Assembly (NCBI GenBank): GCA_947623865.1 | Contig: CANQIC010000007.1 | Span: forward strand, 1,406-65,405 | DNA: 64,000 nt | Source: an uncultured Clostridia bacterium | GTDB lineage: Bacteria; Bacillota; Clostridia; TANB77; CAG-508 | Direction of reading: 5' to 3' | Shown here: positions 52,784 through 52,982 of the stretch, one piece after another | Position numbering within the stretch: the first letter of the stretch is position 1 | Layout: every line of letters starts with the position of its first letter | Notes under the pieces: model-generated | Told to the model about the DNA's origin: nothing | The model's database searches: none | What the model saw: the letters and a program-made list of their open reading frames with translations, nothing else | Translations under genes and position numbers: made by a program

Positions 52784-52982
52784 GATAAATTGTTGTTTGT
52801 AAAATATCAATTGATTTCTAGAAAAGGTTATATTTATTTGTTTCTCAGTTACGCGATCCAGCTTTCGTTACATGAAACTGTTGTTGCTTTAGCAACTTAC
52901 AGGTTCAGTAACGGAATTCGCGTTGGAAACAAATAAATAAACCTTTTCTAGAGAACACTTAATTAAATAAATTACAATTTAT
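52784..52982. repeat. ~200-bp palindromic element with the same termini as the 115-bp family but a different core
   Basis: It starts with gataaattgttgtttgt and ends with aaattacaatttat, the same termini as copy B. The interior has long arms, TCTAGAAAAGGTTATATTTATTTGTTTC / GAAACAAATAAATAAACCTTTTCTAGA, plus nested stems (ACGCGA/TCGCGT, GTTAC/GTAAC, GTTGC/GCAAC). Confidence 0.8.

Follow-up and report, generated by a model that had tools for sequence, protein, structure and literature searches.

The locus examined here raises the question of what kind of unit occupies positions 52784-52983 of the window, i.e. the whole 64,000-nucleotide stretch that was analysed. The window corresponds to contig C7:1406-65405 of G000, a metagenome-assembled genome of 1.47 Mb in 47 contigs with 26.8% G+C. 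An earlier note on this DNA had described 52784-52982 as a variant element combining the termini of a 115-bp repeat family with an unrelated core, and this is confirmed by sequence and alignment. The left end of the element, here called v200, reads GATAAATTGTTGTTTGT (52784-52800), and its right end reads ATAAATTACAATTTATT (52967-52983). These ends had been said to be exactly like those of the 115-bp-family copy at 22807-22926 (“copy B”); the termini are indeed shared, but one inner base differs (ATAAAT, not ACAAAT). The same termini bound the 115-bp-family copies at 1553-1668 and 47640-47759, and another copy of the family lies at 40402-40517. The interior of v200 could not be aligned to the 115-bp family. 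In what follows we refer to the pair of ends as the shell and to the interior as the core or payload, and we consider it fairly probable that v200 is a young payload family within a shell-and-payload superfamily of non-coding palindromic mobile repeats, found in one uncultured gut Clostridia genus, whose cores are overwritten in place at resident shells.

The 200-bp element folds back into a single long nested hairpin, with folding energies of -75.2 kcal/mol for the plus strand and -67.4 kcal/mol for the minus strand (z about -11; none of 200 shuffled sequences was as stable). The previously described long hairpin with 27-bp outer arms and inner stems was thus recovered. Between copies, the unit that is kept extends from 52787 to 52980, starting exactly with AAATTGT and finishing with ACAATTT, while the outermost three bases on each side of the element as first drawn differ from copy to copy. 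It comprises a left terminus, AAATTGTTGTTTGT (52787-52800, plus strand), which is a TTG-type end, the core with outer arms of about 27 bp (52801-52966, plus strand), and a right terminus, which reads AAATTGTAATTTAT on the minus strand (52967-52980) and is a TAA-type end. Among the 15 v200 copies of G000, the left heptamer and the TTG are identical throughout, and one copy has TTTAT for TTTGT. The best-conserved part is a 120-nt centre (52825-52944, plus strand; 142.6 bits with the covariance model R1), which contains an asymmetric bulge, ATCCAGCTTT, present in all lineages.

The element reaches into the coding sequence on its right side. A conserved 65-aa membrane ORF downstream of uvrC (52972-53169, minus strand) takes its final codons, AAA TTG TAA, from v200, and its stop codon (52972-52974) sits within the right terminus, just as the earlier note had it. 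The protein ends in ...ILNKL* in the window vs. ...ILETI* in a relative whose site is free of the element. On the other side, a SAM-dependent methyltransferase gene (52125-52754, minus strand) starts 30 bp from the left terminus. The proteins around v200 (a UvrC-type nuclease, the SAM methyltransferase and an AgrB-type protein) are most closely related to those of uncultured Clostridia from the gut, among them “Clostridium sp. CAG:452” and many bins from rabbit gut.

Two side observations concern these neighbours. In uvrC (53237-55025, minus strand), an additional C near 53800 breaks the reading frame into two ORFs (412 and 192 aa), and nine relatives have a single ORF of 579-602 aa. Since the closest relative (L001) has the same stop after 412 aa, the frameshift is probably genuine rather than an assembly error. 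Just upstream of v200, at 49470-51682, the AgrB-type gene lies near a gene for a GHKL histidine kinase; this is apparently an ordinary-looking agr-like quorum-sensing locus.

Searching with the terminal 17-mer, as the earlier note had proposed, yielded 11 matches with at most two mismatches in the window, where 0.42 were expected, and 239 matches in the whole of G000, which form 86 inverted pairs. In the genus, the motif occurs 7 to 212 times per genome, vs. 0 to 9 times in other genera, one outlier genome apart. With this excess and this largely genus-limited expansion, the motif is clearly not a common AT-rich word that lacks structured cores. The shell ends have the form AAATTGT-TG-TTTGT and AAATTGT-AA-TTTGT, are arranged as inverted repeats and measure 14-17 nt. 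They bound 79 paired elements of 60-330 bp, which fall into at least 10 core clusters (47 elements of the 115/116/120-bp type, 13 of the 200-bp type, and smaller groups); composite and nested copies were also found, as was one coreless pair of 34 bp. The interiors are unrelated hairpin modules, among them v200, the 115-bp core and REP-like doublets with a GTAG tag. Exchangeable cores between shared termini are thus general, and what had been described as a variant is one of 15 copies in this genome. In 55 of the 79 elements, across families, positions 8-9 of the terminus are TG at one end and AA at the other; only two elements have AA at both.

The elements occupy intergenic gaps, and none of the 79 lies inside an ORF. 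They often provide the stop codon of the neighbouring gene: where a gene faces an element with its 3' end, the stop codon falls within the 17-mer in 43 of 70 cases. Of 58 elements, 41 run from the TTG to the TAA end against the direction of the local genes (p = 0.002).

One genome from another family of the order, G049, stands out with 37 matches. Here the same ends surround further payloads, mostly GTAG-tagged REP doublets. Ten of its contigs (L225-L234) have their start 118-190 bp within a palindromic payload with a shell terminus at its end; short-read assemblies are interrupted by these repeats. Two candidates from this genome were rejected. The motif-ended contig starts are not insertion sequences, as the assembly breaks inside a 250-bp palindromic payload, and an IS200 copy that lies beside a shell was dismissed as the mover, as it has its own hairpin ends and the shell merely abuts it.

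Pairing of the ends gave 13 copies of v200 in G000 with 97-99% identity, and searching with the core gave 15 with 97-100%. About 11 copies, 99-100% identical, are present in the sister species (G010), and about 18 of about 90% identity in a third species (G017). One or two copies each were found in G015 and G009, and three (78%) in G002. The core search detected none in the remaining 22 genomes of the genus, and a covariance model of the centre found no homologues in 300 further genomes of the order. Copies of v200 have a mean identity of 0.972 inside G000 and of 0.971 when G000 is compared with G010, and the flanks of the G010 loci are 83-92% (about 89%) identical to G000. Because the copies are near-identical while their flanks differ by about 11%, v200 has spread in both species since their divergence and is thus a recent arrival, most simply by horizontal transfer. 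Selection could partly account for the identity between species instead of transfer. The suggestion of a family of non-autonomous elements fits these non-coding, multi-copy and near-identical sequences well.

A very stable fold in a conserved sequence could also be that of a structured RNA gene or of a cis-regulatory RNA (terminator, stabiliser or riboswitch-like) whose copies are kept by selection. The 120-nt centre is near-invariant between lineages in which the outer arms differ by about 25%; 8 of 45 base pairs change on both sides yet stay paired, the unpaired bulge is conserved, the apical loop changes from TTTA to GAAA, and two fixed G-U pairs occur on one strand only. The covariation, however, derives from three lineages only, and a DNA palindrome would be expected to show it just as well. 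Further evidence speaks against an RNA: v200 has no Rfam match (scanning the whole window against Rfam 15 at the gathering score returned two tRNAs only), no terminator-like site and no excess of promoters were found at v200, the more stably folding strand is in most cases antisense to the genes beside the element, the 15 copies are dispersed over unrelated contexts in both orientations, and most of the genus does not have the element at all. We consider an RNA function highly improbable; v200 is a parasitic repeat and not a gene or an RNA switch.

Comparison of occupied and empty sites across relatives showed that the sites are mostly occupied, and by different cores. At the site of v200 in the window, the same termini and flanks enclose three other cores in L001, L002 and L007; the site holds larger composites in L004, L005 and L032, short remnants in L013-L016, and nothing in some relatives. 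At each of seven other v200 sites of G000, another core lies between the ends in one or more of G009, G010, G011, G015, G017 and G001, and two of these sites carry the G017 version of v200, once inverted. The mappable v200 sites of the sister species give the same picture, as each of the seven is filled by a 115-bp, REP-type or half element in G000. Another core was found between the same ends elsewhere at all 14 tested sites, which points to replacement of cores in place. Of the explanations offered earlier, a preferred insertion or recombination site is the one that fits better, since orthologous sites keep termini and flanks and swap cores.

The flanks show a weak and symmetric preference that fades outward, roughly TTAnAT before AAATTGT. 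Between 453 and 4081 unoccupied sites in G000 fit looser forms of it, so the flanks alone cannot explain why sites are re-used. Because the preference is this weak and yet 14 of 14 sites were re-used, we infer that the resident element, or its shell, is itself the target. Repeated independent insertion at a very specific hotspot would be formally inseparable from replacement, the outer heptamer being invariant.

Comparisons of orthologs also give an indication of where the exchange takes place. Each site keeps its own flanking sequence right up to base -1, and the outer heptamer AAATTGT never changes. From base 8 inward, the clearest cases show the sequence typical of whichever core family is resident, e.g. 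TAA in G010 vs. TTG in G000 at one site. Since the flank is kept to -1, the heptamer does not vary and positions 8-9 follow the core, the junction of the exchanged unit appears to lie inside the heptamer. A different arrangement was observed at the ortholog of the 115-bp-family copy 40402-40517 in a sister species (L183, in G017). There, half a 115-bp element forms a mosaic with a 200-bp-type core: one arm of the 115-bp core is fused directly to a v200-type core that has no left terminus of its own. This mosaic shows that break-and-join takes place within elements and not at the termini alone.

In the course of events that we propose, v200 would have entered recently, most simply by horizontal transfer, and would then have overwritten resident payloads, with the resident shell as the target of the incoming payload. 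The exchange might follow either of two routes. One is cutting at the shared heptamers by an HUH tyrosine transposase of the REP-associated (RAYT) type that acts on single strands; the other is template switching between hairpin-forming copies during replication or repair, by which one core would take the place of another. Tentatively, the end pair can be seen as a chromosomal “socket”, at which an HUH/RAYT-like strand-swap at the heptamers exchanges hairpin payloads, so that a horizontally arrived payload overwrites the residents and makes no new sites; we regard this more specific version as possible, though rather doubtful. Template switching by the host between hairpins is a live alternative.

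A more conventional explanation would be that the elements are classical MITEs, i.e. derivatives formed by deletion, or sequences captured by chance, that have the inverted ends of a single DDE insertion sequence (such as an IS630/Tc1-like element that duplicates TA) and are moved in trans by a transposase whose gene is missing from the bins. MITEs would be expected to have true inverted ends, to reach a high copy number and to come in several size classes with nested copies, as is the case here, and the flanks are compatible with TA, with a T at -1 in 87% and 82% for the two end types. Among the young copies, however, only 7 of 13 v200 elements have a T in front of the left end, and no target duplication of 2-9 bp, at offsets from -4 to +8, exceeded shuffled pairings of left and right flanks; no duplication of any length covaries between the two sides. 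Sharing of all 14 v200 sites with other families likewise argues against it.

The search for a transposase bears on the same point. Within end-bounded pairs (ends of the form AAATTGTWRTTTGT), no transposase was found in G000 or in 80 related loci, and judged by eye no transposase is seen among the multi-copy ORFs of G000, which we take to be a low-complexity cell-wall-anchor-like protein and other non-transposase sequences. The screen for DDE enzymes covered three families in metagenome bins, which are prone to losing multi-copy insertion sequences: DDE_3 is present in none of the 28 genomes of the genus, and rve and DDE_Tnp_1 occur sporadically in them, are absent from the motif-rich G000, G010 and G017, and do not correlate with the number of motifs. 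Repeated insertion sequences are often missing from such bins, which leaves some room for a parental element; with all other evidence considered, we regard an origin as classical MITEs as unlikely. The proposal that the family is mobilised by one enzyme found no match in these data, as no transposase gene carries these termini.

Three longer end-bounded pairs were tried as autonomous elements and rejected. The 561-bp pair encloses a tRNA, the 728-bp pair AT-rich DNA that is poor in ORFs, and the 1583-bp pair two ordinary-looking ORFs. The last of these (C11:41939-43521 in G000) has motif-like ends, half a REP module at the left, and 1.58 kb with ORFs of 374 and 95 aa, the larger of which is, by eye, presumably a sporulation protein of the SpoVAD type. 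Two half elements, or one shell interrupted by genes, could account for it.

Y1 transposase domains are found in 24 of the 28 genomes, mostly in proteins of 230-285 aa. The best model for both Y1 genes of G000 (C28:2500-3258 and C8:55947-56744, both outside the window) is the REP-associated tyrosine transposase of NCBI, with 73-76 bits and thus below the cut-off of 80; a canonical IS200 TnpA was not found in this genome. These RAYT-like genes are flanked by REP-like hairpins of their own, GGTGCAAAAGGGGCC and GGACGGACTAAATTTAG, and have neither a shell motif (AAATTGT) nor v200 at their sides. One of the two hairpins has 28 copies in G000, eight of which lie inside shells. At the C28 locus in sister species, a diverged RAYT is accompanied by a different REP (GGGGACAGACCCC), which suggests that enzyme and repeat co-evolve there. 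Genomes without a RAYT-like gene contain 4-54 motifs and those with one 7-212 (Mann-Whitney p = 0.002, ignoring phylogeny and completeness). Since the genes have no flanking shell motif, occur in motif-free genomes as well and form no cluster common to the three v200-rich genomes, a RAYT-like enzyme is a candidate for the mover, and an unproven one.

It is also conceivable that there is no dedicated transposase at all and that palindrome turnover by the host is sufficient. The ends would then be short homology arms, and hairpin-induced breaks or stalled forks would be repaired from ectopic copies, by which payloads would become homogenised and be swapped. Replacement in place with a junction inside the shared heptamer agrees well with this, as do the mosaic and half elements and the conversion of a TAA end to TTG in two copies, which yields a perfect palindrome. 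So do the isolated termini at 26787, 57991 and C5:20890, which fit hairpin-driven deletion between short repeats. What turnover by itself leaves unexplained is the first arrival of shells at about 100 sites, and the presence of v200 in three species and of at least 37 shells in a genome of another family. Moreover, 7-17 bp is a very short arm length for recombination, and the orientation bias against local genes would not be expected. As the sole process, host turnover is in our view improbable.

The isolated termini deserve a closer look with respect to deletion. At 26787-26803 (plus strand) the previously noted lone motif is an exact 17-mer, located 14 bp beyond the stop of ORF 26818-27276; the closest relative, with a flank of 97% identity, does not have 13 bp of this terminus. 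Alignments of G011 and G024 to the window end exactly at this position, and of 12 relatives only G015 was found to have the DNA that follows on the right with ORF 26818-27276. Because the alignments stop there and the right-hand DNA was found in G015 only, this shell remnant marks the edge of a rearrangement or island. The second isolated motif (57991-58004, plus strand) does follow the rpsT hairpin, as had been reported, but is only a partial motif of 14 nt. In relatives, the rpsT site contains complete elements (three cases), a half element or solo terminus (three) or nothing (one), and in four further relatives it holds other hairpin repeats without intact termini. At the v200 site C5:20890, three species have a solo terminus, exactly what would remain after slippage between the AATTT repeats of the two ends had deleted the rest.

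Clean “empty” sites are rare; in three cases the junctions show overlaps of 0, 2 and 5 bp. They were set aside as a guide to the chemistry of insertion, because most relatives are occupied and secondary deletion is thus the more parsimonious explanation. We infer that solo termini and the few empty sites alike are remnants of secondary deletions, which would have been driven by the hairpins.

Compared with known systems, v200 shares many traits with bacterial MITEs. Correia elements of Neisseria, ERIC and RUP are bacterial MITEs of 100-200 bp with terminal inverted repeats, which fold back, reach high copy numbers, lie in intergenic DNA beside gene ends and have size variants that result from internal insertions and deletions. 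Like these, v200 is short, non-coding, multi-copy, intergenic and capable of folding back, and it has true terminal inverted repeats. Unlike them, it shows no target duplication and no parental insertion sequence was found; the cores within shells are unrelated instead of being deletion derivatives of one parent, and sites are re-used by different families. Correia elements have inverted ends of 26 bp and duplicate TA, whereas shell ends comprise 14-17 nt without duplication and differ in sequence from the Correia consensus. The BIMEs (bacterial interspersed mosaic elements) of enterobacteria are tandem arrays of REPs in alternating orientation; they resemble the shell elements in that palindromic modules and linkers are combined into mosaics at fixed intergenic positions, but shell elements are concentric palindromes between a fixed pair of ends. 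With the IS200/IS605 family and its miniature derivatives (PATEs) the elements have in common a possible single-strand Y1 route, the absence of duplication, an orientation bias, and imperfect hairpins whose mismatches distinguish the two strands. However, those have subterminal hairpins and insert 3' of a fixed tetra- or pentanucleotide, whereas the shells are true terminal inverted repeats with a flank preference that is symmetric on both sides.

The closest similarity is to REPINs and the REP-RAYT system (Bertels and Rainey 2011, PMC3116915; bioRxiv 10.1101/2024.10.14.618302). Both are intergenic, non-coding hairpin repeats without target duplication that persist at orthologous positions while the occupant is replaced; in Pseudomonas, the position of a REPIN is conserved and its occupant is replaced over time (bioRxiv 10.1101/2024.10.14.618302). 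Single-copy Y1 (RAYT-like) genes with REP hairpins of their own are found in the same genomes as the shells, and some shell payloads are GTAG-tagged REP doublets (GTAG-GGGG). The differences are nevertheless substantial. Here, a constant shell of two slightly differing 14-nt inverted ends surrounds many unrelated interiors. REP units are palindromes of 20-40 nt with a conserved GTAG or CGTC tag, and this tag is absent from v200 and the 115-bp core; the v200 core of G000 and G010 has CTAG at the tag position, and no tag is kept across lineages. Furthermore, a single-copy RAYT gene has at its sides REPs of the family it moves, and the RAYT-like genes here have no shell motif beside them. Copies of v200 are 99-100% identical in different species, in contrast to REPINs, for which vertical inheritance is described, and the host is a Clostridia lineage and not one of the Proteobacteria. 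The recently active v200 behaves most like REPINs, yet it fails defining features of both REPINs and MITEs.

For the genomes concerned, these repeats are of some consequence. In these very small gut genomes (1.1-1.7 Mb) they take up a noticeable part of the intergenic DNA, and many genes have their final codons and stop rewritten by them. Elements are located where gene order breaks between relatives, and contigs of one related assembly begin inside them. In annotation, they should be masked as repeats and not be listed as RNA genes or terminators. If socket exchange proves true, it would be a bacterial system for the exchange of non-coding cassettes that is distinct from cut-and-paste MITEs and from vertically inherited REPINs. 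If payloads do overwrite residents at sockets and cross between species, the family would offer a tractable case for studying how non-coding repeats persist in streamlined genomes and which roles RAYT-like enzymes play outside the Proteobacteria.
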